Made by a program: the position numbers and the translations under genes. Positions 11,416-56,085 of a stretch of 64,000 nucleotides of DNA are shown here, piece after piece. Source of the DNA: an uncultured delta proteobacterium (GTDB taxonomy: Bacteria; Desulfobacterota; Desulfobacteria; Desulfobacterales; B30-G6); NCBI GenBank assembly GCA_963823335.1, contig CAWGLD010000006.1, positions 128,314 to 192,313 of the forward strand, given 5' to 3'. The notes below the pieces were generated by a model, which ran no database searches, was not told the origin of the DNA, and worked only from the letters and a program-made list of their open reading frames with translations. Each line of letters begins with the position of its first letter. Position 1 is the stretch's first letter.

Positions 11416-11428
11416 CGATAAATATGAT

Positions 11429-11526
11429 AGGAAGCCTGGAAGCCATGAGGCTGGGAAGCCGCCTTCAGTGATTGGCTGAAAGCCGATACCAGTCTCATAG
11501 CATCCTCGCTTCTCAGCATCACAGCC
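11429..11526. repeat. W12 element (GGAAGCC words ... AGCATCCTCGCTTCTCAGCAT)
   Basis: The left side is the word array GGAAGCCTGGAAGCCATGAGGCTGGGAAGCC. The loop carries the core-like GGCTGAAAGCCGATACCAG. The right arm recurs at 18069 and 63441. Confidence 0.6.
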
Positions 11527-11569
11527 CATCCTTCATTCACCTTTAAACCCATCCGTACCCGTCAATGGC

Positions 11570-12235
11570 TTATGGTGTTACACCAAATCTGAGCCATTTA
11601 AATCTCTTCTGATTATCGATCGACACATATTTTCCAGTACGTGCCATAAATAGATTTTCCGGCTTAAGGCATATATTCGGTTCGTTGGTCTGAAGTTCTT
11701 GAAAGCCAAAAGGATCAAATAATCTGATGAGTATTTTTCGATAAGCCAGTGCAGATTTTGCTGTACCATCCAGATCCCATGTCCAAGAGTACCCCACCAT
11801 ATACACGATCAGTTTCTCCACAATTGAGGGGCGCATCAGCTGCCCCAGGATTCTACCTGCAATCCCGTGGGACCGAAACCGACGGCATATTTCTATGGCT
11901 TTTACCTCCATCATCAATCCGGGCGTCATTTCTTGCCAGCGGTCCCCTTCGTCTGGGGGGCTGAGAACACCAAAACCGATGATATTCTCACCTTCCAATG
12001 CTAAGGTAACATTCGCATTGGCTTGTGATGTATTGTTTTCAAGACTTTCTCTTTTGGTGTAAAGAGACTTGTATTGCGCATGCATGCCAAACTGTCTGTC
12101 AAACGTATAGCGTCGTATCTCTTCCGGTTTGCAGAAAGAGCGGATGCAGATCTTAGGGTTGGAGGGGGTAAGCGCAGGGTTGGAGGGTTGGAGGGGTCGA
12201 GGGTTCGAGGGGGTGTCTTTTGTAGAATATACCAT
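11570..12235 (-). CDS. GNAT acetyltransferase, AcuA-like (start uncertain)
   Basis: 221 aa. YSWTWDLDGTAKSALAYRK and NLFMARTGK resemble recalled B. subtilis AcuA blocks (YYWHWDLKG, NCLMARIGK). The first ~25 codons (PSNPRPLQPSNPALTPSNP) translate a W1 repeat arm, so the true start may be downstream (for example Met at 12085). Confidence 0.6.
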   Translation of the reverse strand: MVYSTKDTPSNPRPLQPSNPALTPSNPKICIRSFCKPEEIRRYTFDRQFGMHAQYKSLYTKRESLENNTSQANANVTLALEGENIIGFGVLSPPDEGDRWQEMTPGLMMEVKAIEICRRFRSHGIAGRILGQLMRPSIVEKLIVYMVGYSWTWDLDGTAKSALAYRKILIRLFDPFGFQELQTNEPNICLKPENLFMARTGKYVSIDNQKRFKWLRFGVTP

Positions 12236-12338
12236 GCAATGATAGCCTTTTAGGGAGTTAGACTGTAGGCTGTTAGGTGCGTATAGCTAAAAGCTCTCAG
12301 CCACCCTCGAACCCTCGAAACCTTGGACCCTCGAACCC
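12153..12338. repeat. W1 hairpin element (full, ~186 bp) with W6-type core
   Basis: The G-rich arm is 12153-12213 and the C-rich arm is 12301-12338 (CCACCCTCGAACCCTCGAAACCTTGGACCCTCGAACCC). The loop contains TTAGACTGTAGGCTGTTAGGTGC, shared with 27540 and 42620. Confidence 0.8.
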
Positions 12339-12343
12339 TTGTT

Positions 12344-13071: not shown

Positions 13072-13081
13072 AAAAGATCGT

Positions 13082-18670: not shown

Positions 18671-18756
18671 GTTTTCTATTACTGTTGCCAGAAAATCATT
18701 TTTTTCAGTTGTGTGACTAAAACAGTATAAAACCATCAAACCCAAGGATTTTAAAC

Positions 18757-19548: not shown

Positions 19549-19773
19549 ATGAAGATGACTCGCGAACAAATACTCAAAAACGAAGGCTGGACAAAACAAT
19601 CCTCCCACGATGAACCCCGCCTGTCCGATATTGTAGAAATGTACGAAGAGATCGGGCTAGAAGTTCTTCTTGAGCCCTTTAACCCGGATGAAGAACCCGG
19701 ATGTACAGATTGCATGCGGGGGTCCGCCCGTAATTACAAGACGATTTACACACGTGATAAACTCAGAATTTAG
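19549..19773 (+). CDS. hypothetical small protein
   Basis: 74 aa ORF tightly spaced after the hydratase gene. It contains a CTDC motif. No family recognised. Confidence 0.4.
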   Translation: MKMTREQILKNEGWTKQSSHDEPRLSDIVEMYEEIGLEVLLEPFNPDEEPGCTDCMRGSARNYKTIYTRDKLRI

Positions 19774-19854
19774 GGGTGGAGGTTTGAAGGGTTGACTGAA
19801 AGCCATCAGCGTTTAGTCACCCTCCACCCCTTCAAACCTCCGACCCTCAAACCC
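19773..19854. repeat. W1 compact hairpin element
   Basis: GGGGTGGAGGTTTGAAGGGTTGAC, loop TGAAAGCCATCAGCGTTTAG, then TCACCCTCCACCCCTTCAAACCTCCGACCCTCAAACCC. It begins on the last base of the TAG stop at 19771-19773. Confidence 0.85.
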
Positions 19855-19879
19855 ATTTCTGTATACCGGGAGCAACACA

Positions 19880-20723: not shown

Positions 20724-20752
20724 TTGACTTAACCGTTTTGTAGCTGTAATGT
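20724..20752 (+). promoter_or_regulatory. candidate sigma70-type promoter upstream of the ior cluster
   Basis: TTGACT (20724-20729), 17-nt spacer, TAATGT (20747-20752). It lies directly after a W8-type hairpin. Confidence 0.45.
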
Positions 20753-20839: not shown

Positions 20840-21118
20840 TGCATTCCCCTTAGGTTCTGCCTTGCGGCAATACTTCGCATGCTGCGGGGTTAGCGAGCGA
20901 GTCAACTACCACCCGTGAAACGGGTGGCTTGGATTTCCCCCAAAATGGGGGAAAAACAAAGGAGACGGCACGTCTCCGCAAGTTCAGGTTCGGAGCCGCG
21001 TGCCAAGCACGCGGTTTGTAGAACAATCAAAATTAGACAGAATTCCTTACGGTCGCTGCGAAGCACTTCCGGACGGCAGAACATTCCTCGTAGCTTGCTG
21101 CGAGGTTCTTCAATCGTT
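20840..21118 (+). repeat. T13 twin-hairpin element interrupted by Q125 insertion
   Basis: 20840-20900 (..CATGCTGCGGGGTTAGCGAGCGA) and 21029-21118 (AAAATTAGACAGAATTCCTTACGGTCG..ATTCCTCGTAGCTTGCTGCGAGGTTCTTCAAT) are contiguous in the uninterrupted copy at 27615-27733 (reverse complement). Confidence 0.7.
20901..21028 (+). mobile_element. Q125 four-hairpin element, copy A
   Basis: 128 nt with four consecutive stems: CCACCCG/CGGGTGG, TTCCCCC/GGGGGAA, GGAGACG/CGTCTCC and CCGCGTG/CACGCGG. It matches the reverse complement of 23250-23375 except for 2 substitutions and 2 one-base indels. Confidence 0.7.
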
Positions 21119-21173
21119 ATCCAAATATGTTCGTAAAACACTTTTATTCCCCATAAATCTTAAGGAAACGACC

Positions 21174-23023
21174 ATGCACAAATTACTCACTGATGAGCCG
21201 GGCAAGAAAATGCTTCTTCTCGGAAATGAGGCCATCGCCAGAGGTGCCATCGAAGCAGGTGTCGCCTTTGCCACAACCTATCCAGGAACGCCGTCTTCTG
21301 AAATATCCCTTGCTCTTTTCCAGATGTCTCAGCAGTGCGACCTCTACTTCGAGTACAGCACAAATGAAAAAGTGGCCCTTGAAGTTGCTGCTGGAGCTGC
21401 CAATTCAGGTGTCAAAACCATGTGCATGATGAAACATGTGGGCTTGAATGTTGCAGCAGATCCACTCATGACCCTTGCTTACGTGGGTGTCAAAAGTGGT
21501 CTCGTCATCTTGACTGCAGATGACCCCTTTATGTTTTCGAGCCAGAATGAGCAGGACAACCGCTATTACGGAAAACTTTCGGGTTTGTCGATCATTGAGC
21601 CGTCTTCGGTGGAAGAAGCCAAGGAAATGATCCCTTATGCCTTTGATCTTTCACTAAAACTAAAGGAACCTGTCCTCTTCCGCACCACCACCCGCATTAA
21701 TCACTCCACAGGAATTGTCACCCTTGGTCCCATAGAGGAACGTATTACCAAGGGTACTTTTACAAAAGACCCGTTCAACTTGGTAACAGTGCCTGCTGTT
21801 TCACGAAAACTTCATGTCAAACTCCTGGATAACATTCAGAAAGCCCAGGAAATATCTGAGACATCAGAATACAATTTTTCTTCTGGTAATGGCCCTTGGG
21901 GTGTTGTCTGTAACGGAGTTAGTTACAATTACGTATGCGATGCCATCAAGGATCTGGGGATCGAAGATAAAACCAAACTCCTGCGAATCGGTTTTTCCCA
22001 TCCCTTGCCGGAAAAACGTATCCAGGAATTTATTTCCAGCTGTGAAAAAATACTCGTGGTCGAAGAAGGCGAACCCTTTATGGAAGAGGCCATCAGGTCA
22101 TTTGCACAGGAAATCCAGAGCACCATTCCCATCCAGGGAAAAGGTGAAGGGCTTTTCAGCCAACTTTATGAATTTGACCCCGCCCTGGTCAGGAGGGTTA
22201 TGGGCAAGTTCTTTGGGGTTCCCGTTTCAACGGCTGTGATTCCTGATCTGACCGATGTGCCGGAAATTCCCCAACGGCCGCCCAATCTGTGTGCGGGATG
22301 CTCCCACCGTGCCACTTTTTATGCTGTGGGAAAGGCGCTTGAAGGCCAAGAAACCATTTATCCAACCGATATCGGTTGTTACACACTCGGCTTTCTCCCC
22401 CCCTGTCCAAGGGTGATTTTCTCATTTGCATGGGTTCCTCAGTAAGCACATCCTGCGGGTTCTCAAAAACAACCGATAAAAAAGTCATTTCCTTTATCGG
22501 AGATTCTACATTCTTTCACTCCGGAATAACGGGGCTTGTCAATGCTGTCTTCAACAACCATAACTTCACTTTGATCATTCTCGACAACGGTACTACGGCC
22601 ATGACCGGGCATCAGCCCAACCCAGGTGTGGACATGGGCAATTTTAATCTGACCGATTTTGGCCGTATATCCATTGAAGAACTTGTCAAAGGAATCGGTG
22701 TAAAACATATCTCGAAAATCAAACCCTTCAGATTAAAAAAGAGCATACAGGCGATTAAAGACGCTGTAGCCTACGAGGGTGTCTCAGTAATCATAGCAGA
22801 AGAAATCTGTACCTTATACGCCAAGGGTTTGAAACAGTTAAAGGCCCGCCCCTTCCATGTAACCGACAAATGCAAGGACCATAAGGATTGTATCAGCAGT
22901 TTGGGATGCCCTGCATTTTTTATTGACGAGGGCCGTGTCAAAATTGATCCCGAGATATGTGTGGGATGTGCTGTCTGTGCTCAGATATGCCCTGAAAATG
23001 CAATATTGCCCATGAAATCATAG
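21174..23023 (+). pseudogene. iorA: indolepyruvate:ferredoxin oxidoreductase alpha subunit, interrupted by a frameshift in a C7 run (22397-22403)
   Basis: ORF 21174-22445 ends ...TDIGCYTLGFLPPCPRVIFSFAWVPQ*. The frame shifted by -1 continues LSPPLSKGDFLICMGSSVSTSCGF ... GDSTFFHSG ... CVGCAVCAQICP to 23023. Joined at the C run they give a contiguous ~616-aa IorA with TPP and 2x[4Fe-4S] regions. The start was moved to the ATG at 21174 (MHKLLTDEPGKKMLLLGNEA). Confidence 0.8.
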
Positions 23024-23193
23024 GGACGATTTCATGGAATGCGACCTTGTCGCTCCAACACAAAAGGCTATTAATCACGTATAGTTAGGACGATATGAAA
23101 TATGGATCATCTCCCAAAGAGTTGACCCAAATTAAGGATTCAAGGATTCCAGGGATCCAGGGTTCGAGTGAGATGACGTGAGGCGCCAGCTAA

Positions 23194-23489
23194 ATGCTTA
23201 AGAATTATAAAGAGTTAAAGGTTTGGAAACGCAGACGATGATATCCGGTGATTGTTCTACAAACCGCGTGCTTGGCACGCGGTTCCGAACCTGAACTTAC
23301 GGAGACGTGCCGTCTCCTTTGTTTTCCCCATTTTGGGGGAAATCCAAGCCACCCGTTTCACGGGTGGTAGTTGACTTGGATTATATGAACAAGGAAATGC
23401 TTGAGGAATTAAGAGAGGATCTTGGGGATGTAGAGAGAATGCTAAAAGCGATGATCAACTCCCTGGAAAACAAACACTTGAATCCTTGA
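23194..23489 (+). pseudogene. remnant of a four-helix-bundle (23S rRNA IVS-type) protein gene, middle replaced by Q125 insertion
   Basis: 23194-23241 reads MLKNYKELKVWKRRR*, which is family-typical (YKxLxVW). 23376-23489 reads LDYMNKEMLEELREDLGDVERMLKAMINSLENKHLNP*, which parallels the C-terminus of the intact copy at 55542 (YIDNETFNKLYSQAETVSRLTSGFIKYL). The Q125 element lies between the two pieces. Confidence 0.55.
23250..23375 (-). mobile_element. Q125 four-hairpin element, copy B (inverted relative to copy A)
   Basis: It is the reverse complement of copy A. It lies inside the four-helix-bundle pseudogene, splitting the N- and C-terminal remnants. Confidence 0.7.
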
Positions 23490-23611
23490 ATCCTGGACTC
23501 CTTGAACCCTTTCTCCCAACTGATTGGGAGAAGATCCTGAAATATTAACAAATTTTCTTTTTCGCGCTGCGCAAGCAGCGTGGAAAAAGAAAATTAAAGA
23601 TTGGACACATC

Positions 23612-26705: not shown

Positions 26706-27523
26706 TGGCAGCATCGAAACCCATCTTTGTCGGCGTCGATGTGGGGGCATCCCGAACCAAGCTGGCTATTTTAGACTCAGGGCATCGGCTTCTCGGTCAT
26801 GCTGTCCAAAAATCAGGAACTGATTTTTCTGCAACAGCCGACCTCTGCCTTGAAACATCCCTCAAAATGGCCAACGCGGATAGATCCGATATCAAACGCG
26901 TGGTCTCTACGGGCTATGGCCGAAAAAATGTCACCTACTCTGACGAAACCAAAACCGAAATTGGGTGTCATGCAAAGGGCTGCTACCTGTATTTTCCTTT
27001 TGCGACCACCATTATCGATATCGGCGGACAGGACAACAAGGTAATCAAGCTGGACGACAGGGGTCACAGAACCAGTTTTAAAATGAACCGCAAATGCGCC
27101 GCTGGAACAGGCGCTTTTCTGGAGGAAATGTCCCCACGTTTGGACATCCCTCTCGAAGCAATGGATGGGCTGGCCAGGAAATCTGAGAACATGATTAAAC
27201 TGGGTAGCTTCTGTACTGTATTTTCCGGCACTGAAGTGCTTGAAAACATACGCAAGGGTAAAAAAGTCAGCGATATTATCAAGGGCTTGTTTTATTCGGT
27301 CATTAAGCGGGTCATCGAAATGGATGCATTTACAGATTCCGTGGTGATGACGGGTGGTGTGGTTGCTCATAATCCTTATCTCGTAACCATGATGGAAGAA
27401 ATCATTAATAAACAGATTCTCGTGCCCGAGTTTCCCCAATTGACCGGAGCCATCGGGGCGGCACTGTATGCACATGAAGGGTTTGAGGGTTCGAGGGGTG
27501 GAGGTTTGGAGGGGGGTAGCTGA
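26705..27523 (+). CDS. BadF/BadG/BcrA/BcrD-type ATPase, 2-hydroxyacyl-CoA dehydratase activase (HgdC-like)
   Basis: 272 aa. VGVDVGASRTK, IIDIGGQDNK and CAAGTGAFLE are present. The last ~15 codons (EGFEGSRGGGLEGGS) and the stop codon lie inside a W1 repeat. Confidence 0.85.
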   Translation: MAASKPIFVGVDVGASRTKLAILDSGHRLLGHAVQKSGTDFSATADLCLETSLKMANADRSDIKRVVSTGYGRKNVTYSDETKTEIGCHAKGCYLYFPFATTIIDIGGQDNKVIKLDDRGHRTSFKMNRKCAAGTGAFLEEMSPRLDIPLEAMDGLARKSENMIKLGSFCTVFSGTEVLENIRKGKKVSDIIKGLFYSVIKRVIEMDAFTDSVVMTGGVVAHNPYLVTMMEEIINKQILVPEFPQLTGAIGAALYAHEGFEGSRGGGLEGGS

Positions 27524-27567
27524 ACGCCTACAGCTGTAAGCACCTAACAGCCTACAGTCTAATCCCC
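27476..27567 (+). repeat. W1 G arm + conserved core, overlapping the 3' end of the activase gene
   Basis: GAAGGGTTTGAGGGTTCGAGGGGTGGAGGTTTGGAGGGGGG followed by TAGCTGAACGCCTACAGCTGTAAGCACCTAACAGCCTACAGTCTAATCCCC. The gene's TGA (27521-27523) lies in the core. Confidence 0.8.
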
Positions 27568-29242: not shown

Positions 29243-31321
29243 ATGTTAGACACCCTATTCAGACCCAAATCCGTCGCCATTATCGGCGCATCGACCAAAG
29301 AGCTGTCCATCGGTAACCGCATCATTCGAAACCTTGTGGATTTTGGCTTCAAGGGACCCATTTTCCCTATCAATCCCAAAGCGGATGAGGTCAGGGGCAT
29401 CAAGGCCTACAAGTCCATATTGGATGCGCCGGACAATATCGATGTTGTCCACATGGTCATTCCAGCAAAATTCGTACCCATGGCTGTGGAAGACTGCGGC
29501 AAAAAAGGTGTCAAAAACATCATTATCAACTCGGGTGGTTTTTCCGAAATCGGCCCCGAAGGCGCTGTCTATGAAAAGGCGTTTCTTAAAAAAGCCAGAC
29601 AATACAATATTCGCGTTTTAGGCCCCAATTGCCAGGGAATCATCAATTCAGATCCCGAAGTAAGAGCCTACTGCAATTTTACATTTACCAAGCCCGATAC
29701 TGGTCATATCTCCATCGTGGCCCTCAGCGGTGGGGTAGCTGAAGTTATTCACCAGGGCTTTTCCGCCATGGGCGTAGGCACACGCATCTATGCTTCAAAC
29801 GGTAACGCCTGCGACATCACAATTCCGGAAATCATTCAATACCTCGGTGATGATGACGGGACGCGGGTAATCGTCACATACGTCGAAGGGTTGAGGGATC
29901 CGGCGACCTTCATGAAAGTCGCCCGGGAAGTTGCAGCAAAAAAACCGATCTTGGCTATGAAGGCCGGCAGAACCATGCAGGGGGCCAAAGCTGCAGCTTC
30001 TCATACCGGTGGTTTGGCCAAAGAAGATCTTGCAACAGACCTGATATTTAAAAAAGCCGGCGTACTGACTTTCATGGACGAGGGTGAGTTGATCCAGGCA
30101 GCCGCTGCCTTTGCATCCCAGCCTGTTCCAAAAGGTAATCGTGTGGGTATTATCACCAACACAGGGGGTCCGGCCGTCATCGCTACCGACATACTGGTGG
30201 GTGCCGGTGCGGAAATACCCCCGCTGTCAAAAAAAACAGAAACCCTCCTGAAAGACAGTCTCTTTCCGGAAGCATCTGTCAACAATCCGGTAGATGTGCT
30301 TGCCACGGGGAATGCCGCGCATTACCGAACATGTATGGATGCCATGATAGCAGACGATAGTTTTGATGCCCTCTATATCAATTTCGTAACACCCTTTTTT
30401 GTTGACACGGACAGCATCGCCAAGGAGATTGCCGCGGTCAATCAACAGGGGCGAAAGCCAATGGTCTGCAACCTGATGACGGACAAAAAACAGTGGGCGG
30501 AAACTACAAACATTCTGATGCAGGCGCAAGTTCCGACATATGCCCTGCCGGGCGAGGCTGCACGTGCCATGACTGCGCTGGTACGTTACCAGGGTATTCT
30601 GGCCCGTGACATAGGAGACGCTGCTGTTTTCAACGATGTAGACAAAGACAACGTCAGTGGAATTCTTAGCCGTGCCAAAGAGGCTGGGCTCACGTTTCTG
30701 ACGGCTGCGGACGCATACGATATACTGGGGGCATATGGCATTCCTTCGGCAAAATGGTCCATGGTGAACACGGCCGAACAGGGAGCCGCTGCCGCCGAAG
30801 ACATGGGGTATCCTGTTGTTGTCAAGGCAGACGCAGCTTCCATTGTACACAAAAGCGACATGGGTGCTGTGGCTGTGAATCTCAAGACTGCCGCCGAGGT
30901 TCAAAAAACCATCTCTGGAATGCGTGAACGTCTTAAAACGGACGATCTCAAGTTCTTTGTCCAGAAATATCTTCCAGGAGGACTTGAAATTATTCTGGGC
31001 GCCAAGGCGGAACCCGGTCTGGGTCATTTGATCATGTTCGGGATGGGAGGTATCTACGTCGAAGTACTCAAAGATGTGGTGTTCAACCTGACACCGGTAA
31101 CTTCATTTGAGGCTAGAGAAATGCTCGATGCCATTCAGCTGTCACCTATTTTAAAGGGTGTCCGGGGTCAGAAAGGGATATGTCGAGACGGCGTCACGGA
31201 CATCATTCAACGTTTGTCACAGCTCGTTTTGGATCACCCCATGATCCAGGAGCTGGACTTGAATCCCACATTGGCGTTTGAAGACAGGGTGGTAGTGGTG
31301 GATGCGAGGATCAGCATTTAG
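29243..31321 (+). CDS. ADP-forming acyl-CoA synthetase (fused alpha/beta, ACS-II-like)
   Basis: The CoA-binding N-terminus SVAIIGAS, the succinyl-CoA-synthetase-like flavodoxin domain (HTGGLA phosphohistidine loop) and a C-terminal ATP-grasp are present. The start was chosen at the ATG at 29243 after GGAGGA (29233-29238). Confidence 0.85.
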   Translation: MLDTLFRPKSVAIIGASTKELSIGNRIIRNLVDFGFKGPIFPINPKADEVRGIKAYKSILDAPDNIDVVHMVIPAKFVPMAVEDCGKKGVKNIIINSGGFSEIGPEGAVYEKAFLKKARQYNIRVLGPNCQGIINSDPEVRAYCNFTFTKPDTGHISIVALSGGVAEVIHQGFSAMGVGTRIYASNGNACDITIPEIIQYLGDDDGTRVIVTYVEGLRDPATFMKVAREVAAKKPILAMKAGRTMQGAKAAASHTGGLAKEDLATDLIFKKAGVLTFMDEGELIQAAAAFASQPVPKGNRVGIITNTGGPAVIATDILVGAGAEIPPLSKKTETLLKDSLFPEASVNNPVDVLATGNAAHYRTCMDAMIADDSFDALYINFVTPFFVDTDSIAKEIAAVNQQGRKPMVCNLMTDKKQWAETTNILMQAQVPTYALPGEAARAMTALVRYQGILARDIGDAAVFNDVDKDNVSGILSRAKEAGLTFLTAADAYDILGAYGIPSAKWSMVNTAEQGAAAAEDMGYPVVVKADAASIVHKSDMGAVAVNLKTAAEVQKTISGMRERLKTDDLKFFVQKYLPGGLEIILGAKAEPGLGHLIMFGMGGIYVEVLKDVVFNLTPVTSFEAREMLDAIQLSPILKGVRGQKGICRDGVTDIIQRLSQLVLDHPMIQELDLNPTLAFEDRVVVVDARISI

Positions 31322-31376
31322 CTCATAGCCTTTAGCTGTTAGATAGCTATCAGCTAAGGGCTAACAGCTATGAGCT
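31320..31376. repeat. W6 hairpin (AGCTCATAGC..GCTATGAGCT)
   Basis: AGCTCATAGCCTTTAGCTGTTAG, loop ATAGCTATCAGCTAAGGG, then CTAACAGCTATGAGCT. It starts inside the TAG stop (31319-31321). Confidence 0.8.
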
Positions 31377-31463
31377 GCGTCGTGTTGATAGATTCAGAAT
31401 AGTTTTAACTTCTCTTACTTACATAACAAGCAACGCTTTAATAAGACGCATAAGGAGACGCCC

Positions 31464-35636: not shown

Positions 35637-36728
35637 ATGACCCAGAATCACTTAAAAAATATCCATATCCCCTTACTAAAATGGTACGACCACAACTGCC
35701 GGAATCTGCCCTGGAGAGAAACAAGCGACCCATATGCCATATGGGTTTCGGAAGTCATGCTGCAACAGACGCAGGTCAAAACGGTTATTCCCTATTACCA
35801 GCGATTTTTGGACGCCTTCCCAACCATACAGGATCTGGCGGCTTCAGACCTTCAAACCGTGTTAAAGATCTGGGAAGGTCTGGGATACTACGGGCGCGCC
35901 CGCAATATGCATCGTGCGGCCCATATCGTTGTGCAAGACTGTCATGGAACCTTTCCTGGCACATGGGAGCATATCCGCAACCTGCCGGGTATCGGTGATT
36001 ACATTGCCGCTGCTGTAATGAGCATCGTCTTCAACGGACAGCATGCCGTCGTGGATGGCAATGTCAAACGGGTTCTGGCACGTCTTCTCAGGGTCGACAC
36101 GCCGGTGAATCAGGCTTCTGCGGGCAACACGTTTAAGAAGTATGCCGATAAATTGCTCTATAAACCAGAACCCGGAAAATACAACCAGGCGATTATGGAA
36201 CTGGGTGCCCTGATCTGTACACCCTACGCTCCGCTTTGCGACACGTGTCCGATTCAACCGGTATGCCAGGCATACCAAACGTCTACGGTGGACATTTATC
36301 CCAAGCGCGTTAAGAAACAACAGACGCCTCTTTACAACATCGCCATCGGTGTCGTTATTAACCATGATAGGGTACTGATTACCCAGCGTCGTAACGATGG
36401 TCTGTTGGGGGGATTGTGGGAATTTCCGGGCGGTAAAATTAAAAAGGACGAAACATCTGCGAAAGCATGTATCCGTGAAATCAAGGAAGAAACCGGTCTG
36501 ACGGTTGCAGTTCATCAGTACTTGACTCAGGTCAAGCATGCCTATACCCATTTCAAGATCAGTGCGGATGTGTATATTTGTGACATTGTTTCTGGTATGG
36601 TTGCCCTGAATGGCCCGGTGGACTATCGATGGATCACACTGGAACAGATTGATGATTATCCATTTCCCAAGGCAAATCATAAGTTTATTCCTCGCCTCAG
36701 AGAGGCGATGGACGGAATGCAGGGGTGA
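35637..36728 (+). CDS. mutY: A/G-specific adenine DNA glycosylase
   Basis: 363 aa. It has LPWRETSDPYAIWVSEVMLQQTQV, an Fe-S cluster loop (CTPYAPLCDTCPIQPVC) and a NUDIX-like C-terminal domain. Confidence 0.9.
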   Translation: MTQNHLKNIHIPLLKWYDHNCRNLPWRETSDPYAIWVSEVMLQQTQVKTVIPYYQRFLDAFPTIQDLAASDLQTVLKIWEGLGYYGRARNMHRAAHIVVQDCHGTFPGTWEHIRNLPGIGDYIAAAVMSIVFNGQHAVVDGNVKRVLARLLRVDTPVNQASAGNTFKKYADKLLYKPEPGKYNQAIMELGALICTPYAPLCDTCPIQPVCQAYQTSTVDIYPKRVKKQQTPLYNIAIGVVINHDRVLITQRRNDGLLGGLWEFPGGKIKKDETSAKACIREIKEETGLTVAVHQYLTQVKHAYTHFKISADVYICDIVSGMVALNGPVDYRWITLEQIDDYPFPKANHKFIPRLREAMDGMQG

Positions 36729-36905
36729 AGGGGCGAAGGGTGATACAAGGGTTGGAGGGTAGCTAACAGCTATCAGCGATAAACCACTAAACGGGATAAA
36801 CCGGAAAAGGTAAAAGGCTTTTAAGAAATACGAGGGTCGAAAGGACGAAAAGGTTCTAAGGGTCTTAGGGTTGCTATGAGCTTGTAGTCGTGAGCTTTAA
36901 CTGTT
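36719..36905 (+). repeat. W1 G arm + core + interior module, no matching C arm
   Basis: The arm overlaps the mutY TGA (36726-36728). The core is GGTAGCTAACAGCTATCAGCGATAAACC. The interior ATAAACCGGAAAAGGTAAAAGGCTTTTAAG is homologous to 40108-40132. Confidence 0.7.
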
Positions 36906-40026: not shown

Positions 40027-40239
40027 GGGTTCGAGGGTTGGAGGGTGGCTTAAAGCTTTTGGCGATAAGCAGTGAATAAACTGTGGCCTAAACCCTAAAA
40101 TGTATAAACCGGAAAAGATAAAAATCTTTTATCACGAAAGTACGAAAACACGAAAAAGACCATAGAGGGGTTCGAAAGTGGATTTCTACTATCAGCGAAA
40201 AACCCACTCGAACCCTCGACCCCTTGAATCCTTGAACCC
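40025..40239. repeat. W1 hairpin element (215 bp) inside the Mo-enzyme operon, containing a W3 half-element
   Basis: The G arm GAGGGTTCGAGGGTTGGAGGGTGG starts inside the TGA at 40024-40026. The C arm is CCACTCGAACCCTCGACCCCTTGAATCCTTGAACCC (40203-40239). The interior holds ATCACGAAAGTACGAAAACACGAAAAAGACCAT. Confidence 0.8.
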
Positions 40240-40296: not shown

Positions 40297-42573
40297 ATGA
40301 GTAAAGCCTACACAGTAATTGGCCACGATATTCCCCGAACCGATGGTCGTGAAAAAGCCACCGGCAGCGCAGTTTATACCGATGACATGAAATTGCCGGG
40401 CATGCTGCATGGCAAGCTTTTGAGAAGCCCGGTAGCCCACGCCCGTATTGCTCATATCGATGTGAGCAAGGCTGCTGCCCTACCCGGTGTCAAATGTGTC
40501 ATTACCGGGGAAGATACGCCTAAAATTAAATATGGCAACTGGCGTCTGTTCCCGGCGACCCAGGACGAGTACCCCCTGGCTATCGACAAGGTACGTTTTA
40601 TCGGCGATGAGGTTGCCGCTGTCGCTGCGGTTGACAAGGACATTGCAGCGGAAGCCCTTGAATTGATACGGGTGGAGTATGAGGAGCTGCCGGCTGTTTT
40701 CGATATCGAAAATTCCCTGGCCAAGGGGGCTCCGATTATTCACGAGACATCCCCCAGCAACATCAGCATCGATCGAAAAATTCAATATGGGAGCATTCAA
40801 AAAGGCTTTGCCGAAGCCGATTATGTCAGGGAGGACGTTTTTTCCGTCCACGCTGTCAGTCCGGCCTATCTCGAACCCTGCTCCTCCCTTGCCCAGTGCG
40901 AGATCGATGGAAGAATAACTCTCTGGACATCGACCCAGGTTCCTTATATTGTCCAGTGCCTGCTCGCATCCACACTCAACATGCGCGAAAATGACATCCG
41001 CGTTATCAAACCTGCTGTTGGCGGAGGCTTTGGCGGCAAAATGGAGTTACGTCCCTGGGAATTCTGTGCGGCGTTCATGGCCATCAAAACGGGCAAGCCG
41101 GTCAAATTTACCCTGACCCGCGAGGAAGAGCTCACAACCGGCCGCAGACGTCATCCCATGAAACTGCGCTCCAAAGTAGGCTTCAAGAAAGACGGTACCC
41201 TTCTGGCAAAAGACCTGCATATCTATCTGGATGGTGGCGCCTACAATGCCATGGGACCCACGGCGACTTTTCTGTGCGGAAACTTCGGCGCCATGCTCTA
41301 CCGCTATCCCAATTACCGGTTTGTGGGCGAACATGTGTATACCAACAAGCCACCGGCAAGTGCCATGAGAGGATTTGGTGCGCCACAATCCCTGTTCGCG
41401 GCAGAGTCCCAGATGAATATCGCCGCCCAGGAACTGGGTATCGATCCCATCGATCTGAGGATCAAGAATGCCATGGTCACCGGTGATAAAATCCCGGATG
41501 TCGCCACCGTATCGAGCTGCGGATTCATTGAATCTCTGGAAGCGGTCAGGGAAATGTCAAACTGGAAGAAAAACCGCCGTCGAAAAAAGAAGGGCTATGG
41601 CATCGGTATCGGCTGCTACAGTTTTATTTCCGGGGGCGTGTTCAACTGGTTCAACACCCAGTACCCCTTTTCAGCCGCAGAGGTCAAAGTATTTTCAGAT
41701 GGTACCGCCCATCTGTTGACCATGGCTTCAGATATCGGCCAGGGTGCCAACACGGTTCTCAAACAGATCCTGGCCGAGGAGCTTGGGCTCCGGATGGAGG
41801 ACATCCGTCTCACCGCGGCGGACACCGCCATGACGCCCCAGGCTGATCTGGGAACCTGGGGTAGTCGGGTCACACTTATGGCGGGCAATGCCATCCTGCA
41901 GGCCGCCCGTCAGATAAAAGACGAAATTTTCGGTGCCGTCTCGGCCCGTTTTAACCTGAATGTCATTTTCGACATGGTGTGCAAAGATGGCCAGGTGTAT
42001 GCCGAAGGAAAACCCGACCGGGGAATGTCCTTTGGTGAAGCCGTTGCCATGGTCCAAAAAGCCAATCGAGGGGAGCCGCTCATTGCCAGAGGATATTACA
42101 CACCACGTGGCAAAGGTCTGGTAACGCCCGCTTTCAGTTTTGGTGCACAGGTCGCCGAAGTTGCGGTGGACACGGAAACCGGTATCGTCAAGGTCGAAAA
42201 AATGTATACCGCCCACGACTGCGGAACCGTCATCAACCCCATGGCTGTCGAAGGACAACTGGAGGGCTCTATTCACATGGGTCTCGGGTATGCATTGTCG
42301 GAGGAATTGATTGTGGAGCAAGGCCGCACCCTCAACAACACCTTTCTCGATTATAAAATGCCCACGGCCCTGGATATGCCACCCGGTGAATCCGTCTGCA
42401 TCGAAACCTACGAACCCGAAGGTCCCATGGGTGCCAAAGAAGCCGGTGAAGGCCTGGCCTCCCCCACGGCCCCGGCCATCGCTGAAGCTGTCTATCATGC
42501 CACCGGGTATCGCTGTATGGATCTTCCCATTACAGCGGATAAGGTGCTGAAGGGGCAGAAAAAAAGGGTTTGA
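40297..42573 (+). CDS. xanthine-dehydrogenase-family enzyme, molybdopterin-binding large subunit
   Basis: 758 aa. GGGFGGK, MRGFGAPQ and GAKEAGEG blocks are present. Confidence 0.9.
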   Translation: MSKAYTVIGHDIPRTDGREKATGSAVYTDDMKLPGMLHGKLLRSPVAHARIAHIDVSKAAALPGVKCVITGEDTPKIKYGNWRLFPATQDEYPLAIDKVRFIGDEVAAVAAVDKDIAAEALELIRVEYEELPAVFDIENSLAKGAPIIHETSPSNISIDRKIQYGSIQKGFAEADYVREDVFSVHAVSPAYLEPCSSLAQCEIDGRITLWTSTQVPYIVQCLLASTLNMRENDIRVIKPAVGGGFGGKMELRPWEFCAAFMAIKTGKPVKFTLTREEELTTGRRRHPMKLRSKVGFKKDGTLLAKDLHIYLDGGAYNAMGPTATFLCGNFGAMLYRYPNYRFVGEHVYTNKPPASAMRGFGAPQSLFAAESQMNIAAQELGIDPIDLRIKNAMVTGDKIPDVATVSSCGFIESLEAVREMSNWKKNRRRKKKGYGIGIGCYSFISGGVFNWFNTQYPFSAAEVKVFSDGTAHLLTMASDIGQGANTVLKQILAEELGLRMEDIRLTAADTAMTPQADLGTWGSRVTLMAGNAILQAARQIKDEIFGAVSARFNLNVIFDMVCKDGQVYAEGKPDRGMSFGEAVAMVQKANRGEPLIARGYYTPRGKGLVTPAFSFGAQVAEVAVDTETGIVKVEKMYTAHDCGTVINPMAVEGQLEGSIHMGLGYALSEELIVEQGRTLNNTFLDYKMPTALDMPPGESVCIETYEPEGPMGAKEAGEGLASPTAPAIAEAVYHATGYRCMDLPITADKVLKGQKKRV

Positions 42574-42686
42574 GGGGCTGAGGTTTGGAGGGTTGAAGGG
42601 TGACTGAAAGCTATCAGCGGTAAGCACCTGACAGCCTACAGTCTATTCCAATTTAAAACTCAAAATTAAAAATTAAAAATTGAACT
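42565..42686 (+). repeat. W1 G arm + conserved core + W10 A/T word array
   Basis: AGGGTTTGAGGGGCTGAGGTTTGGAGGGTTGAAGGGTGA contains the TGA at 42571-42573. It is followed by CTGAAAGCTATCAGCGGTAAGCACCTGACAGCCTACAGTCTA and then AAAACTCAAAATTAAAAATTAAAAATTGAAC. Confidence 0.8.
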
Positions 42687-42689
42687 TTC

Positions 42690-43466
42690 ATGCATACAGA
42701 CAACGTCATCCAACACATCGTAAAAGAGTTGAACGCCTATTGTGACAAAGCAGGGTTAAAGGGATTTGTGGTCGGGGTTTCCGGCGGGATCGACTCTGCC
42801 GTCACATCCACACTCAGCGCCAAAACAGGCAGGAAAACCATTGCCCTCAACATGCCTATCCTTCAGGCAAAAAGCCAGGACTCGCTTTCATCCAGTCATA
42901 TTGCCTGGCTTGAAAAAGCTTACCCGAACGTACAGGGAATCCGCGTCGATCTTTCCGAGGCGTTCCTGACTCTATGCAGGACCCTCCCCTCCGATATCCA
43001 GGATGAACTCAGCATGGCCAACACGCGTTCACGACTGCGCATGCTGACCCTGTATGCCTATGCAACCCACTACCGGTTTTTGGTAGTGGGCACCGGCAAC
43101 AAGGTTGAAGATTTCGGGGTGGGGTTTTTTACAAAATACGGCGACGGTGGCGTGGACATTTCACCTATTGCAGATCTTTTAAAATCAGAGGTCTTTTTAC
43201 TAGGTCAAACCCTTGGTGTCATCGAGGACATCATTCATGCCGCTCCCACGGACGGCCTATGGGAAGACAACCGGACCGATGAAAGCCAGATCGGTGCGAG
43301 CTATGCCGAACTGGAATGGGCCATGGCAGCGGCGACCCAGGAGAATACGGACAGCTTCACAGCACGTCAAAAAGAAGTGCTGTCGATTTATCGCCGTTTT
43401 CACGCCCGGAACCGGCATAAAATGGATCCGATACCGGTGATAAAGATACCGGAGAAATTTCGCTGA
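42690..43466 (+). CDS. nadE: NH3-dependent NAD+ synthetase
   Basis: 258 aa. The PP-loop SGGIDSAV and GTGNKVEDFGVGFFTKYGDGG are present. Confidence 0.9.
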   Translation: MHTDNVIQHIVKELNAYCDKAGLKGFVVGVSGGIDSAVTSTLSAKTGRKTIALNMPILQAKSQDSLSSSHIAWLEKAYPNVQGIRVDLSEAFLTLCRTLPSDIQDELSMANTRSRLRMLTLYAYATHYRFLVVGTGNKVEDFGVGFFTKYGDGGVDISPIADLLKSEVFLLGQTLGVIEDIIHAAPTDGLWEDNRTDESQIGASYAELEWAMAAATQENTDSFTARQKEVLSIYRRFHARNRHKMDPIPVIKIPEKFR

Positions 43467-43804: not shown

Positions 43805-43816
43805 TACACCGTTCAC

Positions 43817-43910
43817 GAAACACCAAATACAAAACACCAAACACTAGACCCAACGAACGCAACAAACCCAACAAACTCAATGAACGCAACAAACCCAATA
43901 AACATAACTG
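43817..43910. repeat. solo C/A arms: W5 followed by W7
   Basis: GAAACACCAAATACAAAACACCAAACACTA followed by GACCCAACGAACGCAACAAACCCAACAAACTCAATGAACGCAACAAACCCAATAAAC. It contains the ATG used by the GNAT gene at 43880. Confidence 0.7.
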
Positions 43911-45077: not shown

Positions 45078-45104
45078 ATTTCGGCCATGTTTTGAAATAA
45101 AAGC

Positions 45105-45185
45105 AATCACGAAAACACGAAAATTTAAAAACACGAAAATCTTCATGGTCTATTTCGTGGTTTCGTACTTTCGTGATTTCGTGAT
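45105..45185. repeat. W3 element, short copy
   Basis: AATCACGAAAACACGAAAATTTAAAAACACGAAAATCTTCATGGTCTATTTCGTGGTTTCGTACTTTCGTGATTTCGTGAT. It matches 12971-13071 minus an internal ~30-nt hairpin. Confidence 0.75.
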
Positions 45186-45231
45186 AAATGATCTTTTTCT
45201 TTTCTCGTTTATCCAAACTGGAAAGTAAAAA

Positions 45232-49052: not shown

Positions 49053-49266
49053 CAATTTTGAATTATGAATTTTGATTATGAATTAGATAGCTGATGACTG
49101 ATAGCTCATAGGTTATAGGCAAGCGCTAGCATGCTGGATGCATTGTCAAAAACTCATCGTCGATCAAGTCGATCGATGATTGTCAGTGTGTGTCTGTGGC
49201 TAAATAAAAAAGATTTACACCTTTAGCGAAACACCAAACACTAAACACAAAATACCAAACACAAAT
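49053..49266. repeat. composite of W10 (reverse), W6, W4 right end and W5 C/A arm
   Basis: CAATTTTGAATTATGAATTTTGATTATGAATT; AGATAGCTGATGACTGATAGCTCATAGG; TCATCGTCGATC-AAGTC-GATCGATGATTGTCAGTGTGTGTCTGTGGCTAAATAAAAAAGAT; GAAACACCAAACACTAAACACAAAATACCAAACAC. Confidence 0.7.
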
Positions 49267-49272
49267 TACACA

Positions 49273-50061
49273 ATGAACCCAACAAACACACCGCTACTGC
49301 GCATCGCCAACATCGAAACACTCTATTTCGACAGGATCTATGCGCTGCATGGGCTTTCTCTCGAGATTCAGGAGGGCGAAATATTTGCGGTGCTGGGCCC
49401 GAATGGTGCCGGCAAAACCACCCTTCTTAAAACCATTGCCGGCCTCCTGAAAGACCAGCCCAAAAAAGGTGTCATCGAATTCATGGGCAAACGCATTCAC
49501 CGCCACCCGCCTGAACGTGTGGCCAATCTCGGCATCGTATATGTTCCCGAAGATCGCGGACTTTTCAGGGAATTGACCGTACGGGAAAACTTGGATATCG
49601 GATGCTGGGGCAGAAAAGGAAAGGAAGTTCAGGAAGACTTGGAGTTTGTCTACACGCTGTTTCCCATATTAAAGGAGAGAGGCAAGCAGCAGGCAGAAAC
49701 CCTGTCAGGTGGTCAACAGCAGATGCTGGCAGTTGCAAGGGCCATGCTCCGCCGACCCAAGCTTCTCATGCTGGACGAGCCATCCCTGGGACTGGCTCCG
49801 CTGGTAGCAAAAGATGTTTATGGAGCACTCGTCAAGATCAGCGAAACCGGGACGACCATTCTCCTTGTAGAACAGAATGCAAAACTGGCGCTTGGAATTG
49901 CCGACTATGGTTATATCATGGAATCCGGACGCATTGTCCTCGAGGGCACTTCCCAGGATCTCAAGGAAAATGAAGATGTTCAGGAACTCTATTTGGGCAT
50001 TGGCCAGGAAGATGCCGCATCTAAAGGATTCAGATTGTACAAGAAAAGGAGAACCTGGTAA
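49273..50061 (+). CDS. livF: ABC transporter ATP-binding protein (LivF-like)
   Basis: 262 aa. GPNGAGKTT, LSGGQQQML and LLMLDEPS are present. The start codon lies in repeat-derived sequence. Confidence 0.85.
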   Translation: MNPTNTPLLRIANIETLYFDRIYALHGLSLEIQEGEIFAVLGPNGAGKTTLLKTIAGLLKDQPKKGVIEFMGKRIHRHPPERVANLGIVYVPEDRGLFRELTVRENLDIGCWGRKGKEVQEDLEFVYTLFPILKERGKQQAETLSGGQQQMLAVARAMLRRPKLLMLDEPSLGLAPLVAKDVYGALVKISETGTTILLVEQNAKLALGIADYGYIMESGRIVLEGTSQDLKENEDVQELYLGIGQEDAASKGFRLYKKRRTW

Positions 50062-54188: not shown

Positions 54189-55463
54189 ATGACTGACGAT
54201 CTGCTCAAGAAGGCCAAAAAATATCGCTGGTACATTTTCTGGATCCTCGCTCTTGGATATGTTCTGGTATACTTCCATCGACTCTGCCCGGCGGTCGTTG
54301 CGGTGGAAATGATGAAGGACCTCAATGCCACCGGCGCTTTGACCGGATTTCTGGGCGCCGCCTATTTCTACCCGTATGCAGCCATGCAGTTGCCGGCCGG
54401 ACTCCTGTCGGACTCCTGGGGACCCCGGAACACCATTACCCTCTTTTTCATCATCGCCTTTTTCGGATCCGTCATTCTCGGTCTGGCACCCTCTGTTTCT
54501 ATCGCAATCGTGGGACGGACTTTGGTGGGGCTTGGCGTTGCCATGCTTTTTGTGCCCACCATGAAGATCCTGGCAGAGTGGTTTCATATCAAAGAATTCG
54601 CCACCATGACCGGTATTCTCATGGCACTGGGCGGTGTGGGCTCTCTGATAGCCGCAACACCACTGGTTTGGGTCAGCAGCTGGATAGGTTGGCGACAGTC
54701 ATTCATTCTGGTGGGTGTCATCACTGTGGTTCTGGCAATTCTCGTGTACTTGATTGTTCGGGATCGACCCGCAATAATGGGCTGGCCTTCCCCGGCCGGG
54801 ACACCCCAGGCACCACCAAAACCCATTGCCCTCATGGCGGGTGTCAAGAAAGTGCTCACTACCCCATTTTTCTGGCCCGTGGCGATTTGGTTTTTCTTTG
54901 ACTGTGCTATTTTTTTCTCATTCGGTGGTCTTTGGGGCGGCCCTTATCTCATGCAGGTCTATGGCTACAGCAAAGCCCAGTCCGGACATATTCTCTCCAT
55001 GCTGGCCATCGGCATGATCGTCGGCAGTCCTCTGCTGAGCTATTTTTCGAACACAGTGCTCAGATCCAGAAAAATTGCCGTTATGATTTCGAGTGTGATG
55101 GTTCTCTGTCTGGTTTTCCCGCTTGCTTTTTTTACGGCAGAAATTCCCCTCATGGGGCATTACATCATCTGTCTGGGGCTGGGAATGTTTTCCAGCGCCA
55201 TCGTGGTTATCGGTTTCACCACCAACAAGGAACTCTTTCCGGTTCAAATGGCCGGAACTGCCACCGGCATGATCAATCTGTTCCCTTTTTCAGGTGGTGC
55301 TGTGTTTCAACCGGTTCTGGGTTATGTGTTGGAAAAACAAGGCCGCATAGAGGGCGCATTTACTCTGGGTGGCTATCAGCAGGCGTTTCTGGTTCTGTTT
55401 GCCTGCAGTGTCATTGCCTTGATCGCCAGTTTTTTCTTCAAGGAAACACTTCAAAAAGGCTGA
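54189..55463 (+). CDS. MFS transporter
   Basis: 424 aa with about 12 predicted TM helices and the MFS loop motif GLLSDSWGPR. Confidence 0.8.
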   Translation: MTDDLLKKAKKYRWYIFWILALGYVLVYFHRLCPAVVAVEMMKDLNATGALTGFLGAAYFYPYAAMQLPAGLLSDSWGPRNTITLFFIIAFFGSVILGLAPSVSIAIVGRTLVGLGVAMLFVPTMKILAEWFHIKEFATMTGILMALGGVGSLIAATPLVWVSSWIGWRQSFILVGVITVVLAILVYLIVRDRPAIMGWPSPAGTPQAPPKPIALMAGVKKVLTTPFFWPVAIWFFFDCAIFFSFGGLWGGPYLMQVYGYSKAQSGHILSMLAIGMIVGSPLLSYFSNTVLRSRKIAVMISSVMVLCLVFPLAFFTAEIPLMGHYIICLGLGMFSSAIVVIGFTTNKELFPVQMAGTATGMINLFPFSGGAVFQPVLGYVLEKQGRIEGAFTLGGYQQAFLVLFACSVIALIASFFFKETLQKG

Positions 55464-55473
55464 AAGCCTTTTT
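55453..55473 (+). terminator. possible terminator hairpin overlapping the MFS stop codon
   Basis: AAAAAGGC-TGAAA-GCCTTTTT. The T run is short and lies inside the stem. Confidence 0.35.
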
Positions 55474-56011
55474 GGGTTATTGAGTTTGTTGGGTTTATTG
55501 AGTTCGTTGGGTTCGTTGCGTTTATTATTTGGGTGCAGTAAATGCCGATTAGAAGGTTTGAAGATATTGATGCATGGAAAGAGGCCAGAAAACTTGTTAT
55601 TTTGGTCTATCAGGCGATTGATTCCAATGATTTTTTCAGAAAAGATTACAGACTTGTCAATCAAATTCAAGGTGCGGCAGTTTCTGCAATGTCAAATATT
55701 GCAGAGGGTTTTTCAAGAAGAAGCAACAAAGAATTCATCCAGTTTCTTTTTATTTCGAAAAGTTCAGCTGCAGAGGTTCAAAGTCAACTATACGTCGCCC
55801 TCGACCAGAAATATATCGACAATGAAACATTTAATAAACTTTATTCACAAGCCGAAACAGTTTCAAGACTTACTTCCGGCTTCATCAAATACCTAAGATC
55901 TCAACTCAACAAACCAAGGCAACCAGGTTAACTCAATGGCACTCCCATATGCCCCAGAGCATTCAACAACTCGACGAACTCAATAAACCCAACGAACCCA
56001 ACGAACACGAC
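55474..56011 (+). mobile_element. IVS-like element: W7 inverted-repeat arms enclosing an intact four-helix-bundle gene
   Basis: The left G/T arm is 55474-55533. The right C/A arm is 55964-56011 (CAACAACTCGACGAACTCAATAAACCCAACGAACCCAACGAACACGAC). The ORF 55542-55931 lies in the loop. Confidence 0.7.
55542..55931 (+). CDS. four-helix-bundle protein (23S rRNA intervening-sequence protein / S23p family, Avd-related)
   Basis: 129 aa. FEDIDAWKEARKLVILVY, QIQGAAVSAMSNIAEGFSRRSNKEFIQFL and ISKSSAAEVQSQL are the family hallmarks as I recall them. The gene lies in the loop of a W7 inverted repeat. Confidence 0.8.
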   Translation: MPIRRFEDIDAWKEARKLVILVYQAIDSNDFFRKDYRLVNQIQGAAVSAMSNIAEGFSRRSNKEFIQFLFISKSSAAEVQSQLYVALDQKYIDNETFNKLYSQAETVSRLTSGFIKYLRSQLNKPRQPG

Positions 56012-56085
56012 AATCCTCTCTTGAAAATCATTCAAAACAGTTTATAGTTAGAATATCATTATCCAATTTAATTTGGGGGTATCGT

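Follow-up and report, generated by a model that had tools for sequence, protein, structure and literature searches.

The 22-nt block and its surroundings in the window

The stretch of DNA analyzed here, referred to as the window, comprises 64,000 nt of contig CAWGLD010000006.1 (positions 128,314 to 192,313) from an uncultured delta proteobacterium of the Desulfobacterales; its GC content is ~48%, and the spacers between its genes are dense with degenerate arrays of 7-9-nt words, often arranged as inverted repeats. The subject of this work is a 22-nt block, GCACCTRACAGCCTACAGTCTA, that lies within three of these intergenic elements, one of them between an aldehyde oxidoreductase gene and nadE. 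The block is probably the detached 3' arm of a small, mobile and selfish cassette that encodes an S23p/Avd-like four-helix-bundle (4HB) protein (PF05635, 23S_rRNA_IVP) of a subfamily termed h-type and resembles the intervening sequences (IVS) of bacterial 23S rRNA; related loci from other genomes and metagenomes carry L numbers. The three block-bearing elements contain the following features.

42565..42601, plus strand: G arm of ~4.6 degenerate 8-nt words (AGGGTTSG).
42604..42619, plus strand: short core CTGAAAGCTATCAGCG, nearly a palindrome and built of two 7-nt words anchored on AGC; it follows G arms as their junction or apex.
42624..42645, plus strand: 22-nt block, G variant (GCACCTGACAGCCTACAGTCTA); probable orphan 3'-arm array of an h-type 4HB cassette.
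42650..42681, plus strand: AATTAAA heptamer array forming the nadE leader, partly conserved in L038.
27477..27519, plus strand: G arm of the second block-bearing element.
27520..27561, plus strand: core variant CTGAACGCCTACAGC followed by TGTAA and, at 27540-27561, by the block; an orthologous copy in L017 has the block 22/22 identical.
12153..12340, minus strand: complete G/C hairpin element that runs from the G arm (12340-12303) through the core variant (12300-12286) and the block (12280-12259) to a tail and the C arm (~12213-12153).

The block occurs exactly three times, at 12259-12280 on the minus strand and at 27540-27561 and 42624-42645 on the plus strand, with no fourth match in the window even at up to 3 mismatches; the original prediction, made from the letters of the window, had named the same three copies, which are real, at coordinates shifted by 1-2 nt. 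It had also placed the block just inside the G arm, and all three copies do lie directly 3' of a G-rich word arm, each with the same order of parts: G-rich arm (AGGGTTSG words), 15-nt AGC-word core, 5-nt linker, and block. The further claim that the shared sequence occurs irrespective of its arms holds for the short core and fails for the block, as the same G arm is present at all three copies. The only complete hairpin among the three elements is that at 12140-12350 on the minus strand (z of −5.3 relative to shuffled sequence), where the block lies in a loop of ~95 nt and is surrounded by minus-strand genes; neither the 42565 nor the 27477 element has a C arm, and their folds are no more stable than those of shuffled sequence (z of −1.2 and +0.2, respectively). 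The A/T-rich stretch 42650-42681 was considered as a partner arm of the 42565 element and rejected, being the nadE leader.

The elements also reshape the 3' ends of genes, because the upstream open reading frames (ORFs) enter the G arm and stop at a TGA that the element supplies (27477-27523 and 42565-42573). The aldehyde oxidoreductase gene at 40297-42573 takes its TGA stop from the first G word of the 42565 arm; the BcrAD_BadFG ATPase ORF reads through the G arm at 27477-27519 as far as a TGA in the core (27521-27523) and thereby gains ..EGFEGSRGGGLEGGS*.

The intergenic position of the block and the abundance of AGC-anchored words in the window would suit a role as promoter or intrinsic terminator, membership in a known family of structured RNAs, or an origin by chance from AGCT-rich words; the evidence makes this group of explanations scarcely credible. 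Word composition, which the original prediction had itself raised, gives 0 matches to the block in 100 dinucleotide shuffles of the window (a chance expectation of nil), against ~100 exact copies found elsewhere, and the short core is found 5 times where 0.86 are expected. Searches of Rfam 15 returned nothing at the gathering score in the window and nothing at E <= 1 in 42540-42700, no rRNA is present in the window, and the RNAalifold consensus of the module that contains the block reaches −8 kcal/mol with no covariation. No sigma-70-like promoter or intrinsic terminator is found at any of the three block copies; ordinary promoters are recognizable in this organism, because a sigma-70-like promoter (TTGACT-17 nt-TAATGT) at 20715-20750, upstream of the genes at 21000-23023, is conserved with L017 (1540-1575). 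Other candidate roles were set aside: sigma-54, ECF-type, IHF and integron attC core motifs, compared by eye, fit in neither spacing nor conservation; a possible pairing between GGGUGGCU and AGCACCU shows no variation and is absent from contexts that lack a G arm; and peptide coding by the block is argued against by its exact nucleotide conservation and by stops in all frames.

The block as a probable 3' arm of h-type 4HB cassettes

The block is a three-word array of the CAGCCTAA word family (GCACCTAA / CAGCCTA / CAGTCTAA), and arrays of the same type elsewhere pair with arrays of TTAGGCTG/TAGACTGT words as hairpins (L021, L017, L013). In L020 a 118-aa PF05635 gene (6508-6864) lies between word arrays, with left arm ATAGACTGTCAGACTGTAGGCTGTAGG and right arm ACACCTAACAGCCTACAGTCTACAGTCTAAAC; ACACCTAACAGCCTACAGTCTA[CAGTCTA]AAC stands directly 3' of the gene and complementary words stand 5' of it, the TAA of ACCTAA is the stop codon, and the arms are predicted to pair around the ORF (z of −3.35). 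The exact 22-mer is found in L087 as ..AGC ACC TAA CAGCCTACAGTCTA, where it ends a 4HB gene cut by internal deletion to ~30 codons; L020 and L023 share this permease/ABC-ATPase site. The 4HB protein of L020 has thousands of close relatives, and the h-type protein also matches PF22296 bAvd, below its cut-off. The same arms are present in every h-type context retrieved (L022, L023/24, L025-27, L028-37), and six independent h-type cassettes from Thermodesulfobacteriota and Verrucomicrobiota retain h arms. These cassettes are wedged tightly between co-directional genes, in the orders permease-4HB-ABC ATPase, kinase-4HB-response regulator, and KaiB-4HB-kinase; in P0046 the 4HB ORF continues into the arm (..LPNSLQPTA). 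The only hint of covariation between arms is the presence of GAAG/CTTC word variants in both arms of L022 and L025. The link between the element family and a 4HB protein that had been raised from the window is therefore real, as the block array is the 3' arm of 4HB cassettes (L020, L087); its companion claim, that the block is a recognized core specific to the loop, is not supported, as the block is itself an arm, namely the 3' terminal repeat of hairpin-flanked 4HB cassettes (L020, L022-L037, L087).

Cassettes of other 4HB subfamilies share this architecture with different words. Two sites in the window illustrate the 9-nt-word type:

55472..56006, plus strand: intact 4HB (PF05635) gene 55542-55931 with 9-nt word arms (TTGGGTTCG.../...ACGAACCCA) and a ~35-bp stem.
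43808..43903, plus strand: orphan 3'-type arrays (ACCAAAC and ACCCAACAA words) 5' of a GNAT gene, at a position syntenic with L038.

The arm word type matches the 4HB subfamily in 15/15 cassettes examined. Cassettes with 9-nt words are found at 55542 in the window and in L038, L039 (from a Methanosarcinales metagenome-assembled genome, MAG) and L040; the C-termini and lengths of their proteins differ in steps of 3 aa, which correspond to whole 9-nt words. The window gene at 55542 scores 110 bits on PF05635, and its arms are predicted to pair around the ORF (55462-56016, z of −4.2); its protein shares 28.6% identity with the h-type protein of L020. Cassettes with G/C words (window 23104-23537, L135-L139) survive almost only as deletion derivatives of 34-88 aa, all of which end in ..KSLENKHLNP* with the stop within the first C-arm word. 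As a side observation, 3'-type 9-nt arrays (..AATGAACCC..) at 19873-19912, 43848-43903 and 49248-49290, and at 1580-1650 of L038, overlap the annotated downstream gene starts at 19880, 43880 and 49273, providing in-frame ATGs and giving the downstream genes variable N-terminal extensions of the form MN(P/S/A)(T/I)N...

The separation of an arm from its cassette can be followed at the second of the sites listed above. L038 has a full 9-mer-arm 4HB cassette between nadE and the GNAT gene, and the syntenic site in the window keeps only the 3' arrays; the L038 cassette set against window 43808-43903 is, on synteny, a direct precedent for arm orphaning. Words complementary to the block are absent within 700 nt in 23/24 copies. 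The block inside G-arm loops is best read as cargo, or as a mosaic produced by nesting, recombination and deletion, and the repeats of the window as a patchwork of broken mobile cassettes, not as a signal of a new type.

It is therefore considered likely that the block was once the 3' arm of an IVS-like 4HB cassette of the h-type, was orphaned and became fused to a G/C-type 5' half, and that the chimera spread as a module. Full h-type cassettes are promoter-less and lie in sense orientation between co-directional genes. Their 4HB ORF stands between a 5' arm of TAGGCTGT/TAGACTGT words and a 3' arm that opens with the last sense codon and the stop (..ACC TAA / CAGCCTA / CAGTCTA ...); the two arms are predicted to form a long stem around the ORF, as in the IVS of 23S rRNA. 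Such cassettes decay by internal deletion and recombine or nest with those of other families, which differ in word type. The block of the window would then persist without its partner arm, joined behind a G/C-type 5' half made of the G arm and the AGC-word core, and this chimeric module would itself have been copied to many intergenic sites in Desulfobacterales; its strand bias could be inherited from promoter-less cassettes that need sense orientation. Both the copying mechanism of the module and any present function of the block are presumptive.

Several observations weigh against this reading. No h-type 4HB gene occurs within the 64-kb window, and no outer terminal inverted repeats (TIRs) were found, nor target-site duplications (TSDs) recognized by eye, at the three block-bearing elements. 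The complementarity of arms within a cassette shows no clear excess over that between cassettes, so that selection for arm pairing is not demonstrated. The chimeric origin from a G/C-type 5' half and an h-type 3' arm is itself deduced from sequence comparison, with no intermediate observed. Most block copies came from exact-match searches, which inflates their apparent invariance. The block is nevertheless more conserved than its flanks, which a pure relic leaves unexplained; the same holds for the orthologous blocks at window 27540 and in L017, which are 22/22 identical in a spacer that has been rebuilt around them, an identity with a probability of ~4e-4 at an assumed divergence of 30%.

Copies elsewhere and the conservation of the module

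The exact block is found at 21 loci, which belong to approximately eight MAGs assigned to Desulfobacterales or 'delta proteobacterium' and to one labelled Spartobacteria, although MAG binning may be imperfect, and the 21-mer that remains without the first G is found in 90 metagenome stretches. An origin of the block from phages was rejected, as no match was obtained in viral contigs. The copies share a module of ~60 nt in which ..GGGTTGGAGGGTGG closes the G arm and is followed by the core CTGAnAGCTnnnAGC, a linker of 5 nt, the block GCACCTAACAGCCTACAGTCTAAAC and the tail nGCTAAAAGGCTAA, and G words often restart 3' of the tail. Identical module junctions are present in 24 genome-derived copies, whose flanking proteins are unrelated save for one orthologous pair, and in ~40 metagenome contexts; because the same junctions recur between unrelated flanking genes, the module is considered to have been copied as a unit. 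The block module resembles miniature inverted-repeat transposable elements (MITEs) in having many copies, non-homologous flanks, and no transposase inside.

The loci that carry the exact 21-mer range in GC content from 0.31 to 0.63. At the lower end are L106 and L116 (GC 0.31-0.34), from an AT-rich organism in which the exact 21-mer lies beside arrays of its own (CGTAATT heptamers and ATATATAATCCCTACGGGATAA units); since this organism carries them, word arrays extend beyond the Desulfobacterales. Literature searches yielded no account of 4HB cassettes outside rRNA and none of these word arrays.

The module, found at more than 50 unrelated intergenic sites, is strongly oriented with respect to its neighbors and mostly lies downstream of a co-oriented gene. 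Over 82 distinct contexts of the block other than MITEs, the upstream gene is on the same strand as the module in 57/67 cases (p = 4e-9) and the downstream gene in 45/63, counts that rest on crude ORF calling. The order of G arm before C arm was dropped as evidence of orientation, because an inverted repeat reads alike on either strand, and only the orientation of the asymmetric block or module was used. Among 24 module copies not chosen by exact match, a consensus frequency of 0.91 in the block compares with 0.72 in the core and linker and 0.71 in the tail; GCACCTAA does not vary at all, and differences among the blocks are confined to three C/T positions. The suggestion of a conserved center is to this extent borne out, in that the 22-nt block exceeds all its surroundings in conservation. 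This excess suggests continued recognition, either by the cassette's own machinery, for which the cognate pentameric 4HB protein is the candidate, or by a partner RNA arm.

Taken further, the block and its tail of CTAA words would form a single-stranded RNA site in 3' untranslated regions or intercistronic spacers, bound by a ring-shaped pentameric 4HB protein with one subunit per word, much as TRAP binds GAG repeats; binding would modulate the stability, processing or translation of the flanking cistrons, and orphan arrays would serve as regulatory or decoy sites. This proposal is unlikely, though a number of observations agree with it: the sense-strand bias toward the upstream gene, the conservation of the block above its flanks together with the invariance of GCACCTAA, the identity of the orthologous copy in a diverged spacer, the range of base composition over which the exact 21-mer is kept, and the match of arm word type to 4HB subfamily. 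Relatives of the protein, the Avd proteins of diversity-generating retroelements (DGRs), are known from the DGR literature to bind nucleic acid, which is also counted in its favor. Block and tail together comprise five NNNNCTAA words, and S23p homologues are homopentamers (2gsc; PMC4990558); against this, the number of words per arm ranges from 4 to 9 rather than being a constant five. Co-inheritance accounts equally well for the match of arms and subfamilies, the h-type 4HB gene is not seen in the window, and the strand bias may descend from promoter-less cassettes that require sense insertion. In its most general form, which is quite unlikely, tandem-word arrays would be the recognition code of S23p/Avd-like pentamers, each 4HB subfamily reading its own 7-9-nt word; the orphan block would be kept as a protein-binding site in operon transcripts, and the same recognition would drive the spread of cassettes. 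If true, IVS/S23p elements would be a large class of mobile, protein-guided RNA/DNA modules across phyla.

Terminal repeats, target-site duplications and deletion derivatives

Elements with the marks of transposition are found among the relatives of the block-bearing copies. One is complete in the window:

23104..23537, plus strand: G/C-type 4HB element with TIRs GGATCATCTCCC...GGGAGAAGATCC and the 8-bp TSD TGAAATAT at 23096-23103 and 23538-23545.

This 434-nt element is the only one of the window with the TIRs GGATCATCTCC...GGAGAAGATCC. Its 4HB mini-ORF has been shortened by deletion, ends at a stop within the first word of the C arm, and is interrupted by a ~125-nt element of four hairpins (23253-23376). 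The TSDs of G/C-type elements are perfect 8-bp repeats (TGAAATAT in the window, GCCTATCT in L135, and ATATCTCA in L138), and at the site of the window element L017 has a collapsed GGGGTTCCTTGAACCC, which, like the L038 cassette, illustrates by synteny how orphaned arms arise. A 133-nt h-armed MITE from one metagenome carries the exact 21-mer and TIRs, has 8-bp TSDs in 4/6 copies, and displays no strand bias. The original prediction had described the elements as the opposite of typical MITEs; because relatives carry TIRs and 8-bp TSDs, and hence conserved ends, the element family is MITE-like after all.

The four-hairpin element is an observation in its own right. It is ~130 nt long and consists of four perfect small hairpins with 3-nt loops; one copy lies at 20898-21032 on the plus strand and an inverted copy at 23247-23378 (z of −7.1 and −6.3), and it is the latter that interrupts the mini-ORF described above. 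The two copies are 96-98% complementary and are 95-98% identical to copies in other MAGs (L003, L014, L015); the sole Rfam match is a sub-threshold one to CRISPR-DR15 (E 0.65). In L136 and L137 (~800-1368) an IS110-family transposase gene (DEDD_Tnp_IS110/Transposase_20) starts where the right-end hairpin of the G/C type is truncated, a position that suggests hairpin-targeted insertion of the insertion sequence.

The short AGC-word core

Exact copies of the 16-nt core CTGAAAGCYATCAGCG stand at 19796-19811 and 42604-42619, and a copy with 2 mismatches stands at 36763-36778; the 5 matches noted above are those at up to 3 mismatches. Further sites that had been proposed for it are loose: 11476 has 5 mismatches, and 18052 and 31340 have 4 each, the stretch shared at 31340 being merely 11 nt. 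Core sequences are found in the following features in addition to the block-bearing elements, and the core also lies within an AGC-word hairpin at 31305-31385 (z of −6.1).

19772..19856, plus strand: short G/C hairpin, its apex occupied by an exact copy of the short core (19796-19811); block absent; z of −6.2 (19765-19860).
11430..11530, plus strand: hairpin with GGAAGC/GCTTCC-type arms and the core-like GGCTGAAAGCC near its apex; z of −3.8 (11420-11540).
36721..36778, plus strand: G arm and core variant CTAACAGCTATCAGCG; block absent.

In the orthologous Ald_Xan_dh/nadE spacer of L038, the core CTGAAAGCCATCAGC forms the apex of a hairpin (z of −4.9) whose arms (GGAGGCTAGGATGC.../...GCTTCCCAGCATC) are wholly unlike those of the window. 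The claim of a conserved center between variable arms is therefore valid for the 15-16-nt core, since the apex in L038 is the short core between other arms; for the 22-nt block it is not. The core is probably an apex or leader remnant that persists in hairpins after loss of the ORF. A homology of the core to the leader and start of G/C-type 4HB genes (..GGCATCAGCTGAATGC.. compared with ..GCTATCAGCGGAAAGC..) is suggestive by eye and was set aside as too short to claim.

These data also bear on an explanation at the level of DNA, in which hairpin elements would exchange arms at the short core, their common hinge or crossover point, and the block would be recognized by the transposition or copying machinery that spreads the module. 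The Ald_Xan_dh/nadE spacer, in which the core is kept at 14/15 positions between wholly different arms, fits such a role, as do the near-palindromic form of the core (a perfect palindrome, GCTAATAGCTATTAGC, in L016 and L019), the joining of modules in both orders at different loci, and the TIRs and 8-bp TSDs of related elements. The explanation is distinctly improbable: in the TIR-bearing elements block and core are internal rather than terminal, and two independent insertions of core-bearing elements at one hot spot explain the orthologous site equally well. Furthermore, the module is strand-biased whereas the MITE is not, which argues for a constraint at the level of the transcript.

Relation to known repeats and significance

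The systems closest to the cassettes are the IVS of 23S rRNA (Leptospira, Coxiella, Brucella, Haemophilus), which likewise hold a PF05635 ORF within a terminal-inverted-repeat hairpin, with tandem heptamers of variable number and an ORF prone to reduction. In Coxiella the IVS combines a stem of 28 bp and heptamers in tandem, whose number varies, with an S23p ORF in decay; it is excised by RNase III, as is known also for the IVS of Leptospira and Salmonella; IVS are regarded as selfish, and their mobility is merely hypothesized (PMC4990558). Unlike IVS, which reside in helix 25 or 45 of 23S rRNA, all copies described here lie between protein-coding genes; the elements fall into several families with their own word types, some have outer TIRs and 8-bp TSDs, and the block-bearing copies have neither ORF nor partner arm; processing of the present cassettes by RNase III is presumed from predicted stems.

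Bacterial MITEs (Correia/NEMIS, RUP, ERIC, Nezha) are similar in being short, non-autonomous, multi-copy, intergenic and co-transcribed; they share with the G/C-type and the 133-nt h-armed elements the presence of TIRs and TSDs, and are likewise internal-deletion derivatives of a longer element. In contrast to MITEs, the longer parent here encodes a 4HB protein and no recognizable transposase, the prominent repeats are internal tandem-word arms rather than termini, and the three block-bearing elements are without visible TIRs or TSDs.

Repetitive extragenic palindromes and the bacterial interspersed mosaic elements that they form (REP/BIME), with their REP-associated tyrosine transposases (RAYTs) in Enterobacteria and Pseudomonas, are also intergenic mosaics of few short modules, often right after stop codons, and each repeat family is tied to one family of small protein genes; in the related RIP/RIB elements a central motif, a site for IHF, can be conserved between palindromic units. 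The arms here differ in being tandem 7-9-nt words with a strong sense-strand bias, and there is no GTAG-type REP and no Y1 (HUH) transposase; no RAYT gene is present among the annotated neighbors. The Avd proteins of DGRs belong to the same superfamily as the 4HB proteins, and PF05635 is handled as Avd-like (PMC10053308). No reverse transcriptase (RT) gene adjoins the cassettes in the tables of called genes, a statement that covers neither TR/VR repeats, which were not searched for, nor the window outside annotated genes, which was not scanned for RT. The short tandemly repeated repetitive (STRR) sequences of cyanobacteria are tandem heptanucleotide words in intergenic DNA, with several families per genome, and in this resemble the present word arrays; they occur in another taxon and consist of other words, and we know of no established link between STRR sequences and 4HB genes.

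IVS and S23p ORFs have been known since the early 1990s, and their origin, mobility and function are still unexplained. The IVS-like cassette architecture is common between ordinary genes, in families that each have their own word-array arms, and at least two cassette forms have the hallmarks of transposons (TIRs and 8-bp TSDs) together with deletion derivatives, which makes mobility directly testable. In these Desulfobacterales genomes, cassette debris accounts for much of the intergenic repeat DNA that is built of words. The block is a compact marker of one cassette family in loci of 31% to 63% GC, and would be a natural first oligonucleotide for asking what the 4HB pentamer binds. For annotation, caution is needed where G arms and 9-mer arrays produce artificial ends and starts of ORFs.

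Other repeats of the window and related loci

Repeats of other kinds occur beside the cassette remnants. A sequence of ~100 nt at 20561-20660 matches parts of L003, L005, L007 and L008, which are unrelated loci, at 87-91% identity; it folds modestly (z of −2.4 and −3.7) and is probably another dispersed element. Two further kinds of repeat are spread over the window (15620, 16661, 20698, 34594, 38385, 38614 and 54003) and L003, L012, L019, L056 and others. One consists of double hairpins of the form ATAAAATCG..CGATTTTAT with GCGACnnnGTCGC; the other, seen in related loci, consists of tandem mini-hairpins with GNA-type loops (GCCCGCAGGGC TAAT GTCCGAAGGAC ..) and can also precede the block. Hairpins of CACGAAAA/TTTTCGTG words with a shared center lie at 12969-13083, 18588-18671, 40101-40160 and 45095-45214; they are 82-94% alike within the window and ~90% alike to copies in L003, L004, L015 and L016, and are present in both orientations with respect to genes.

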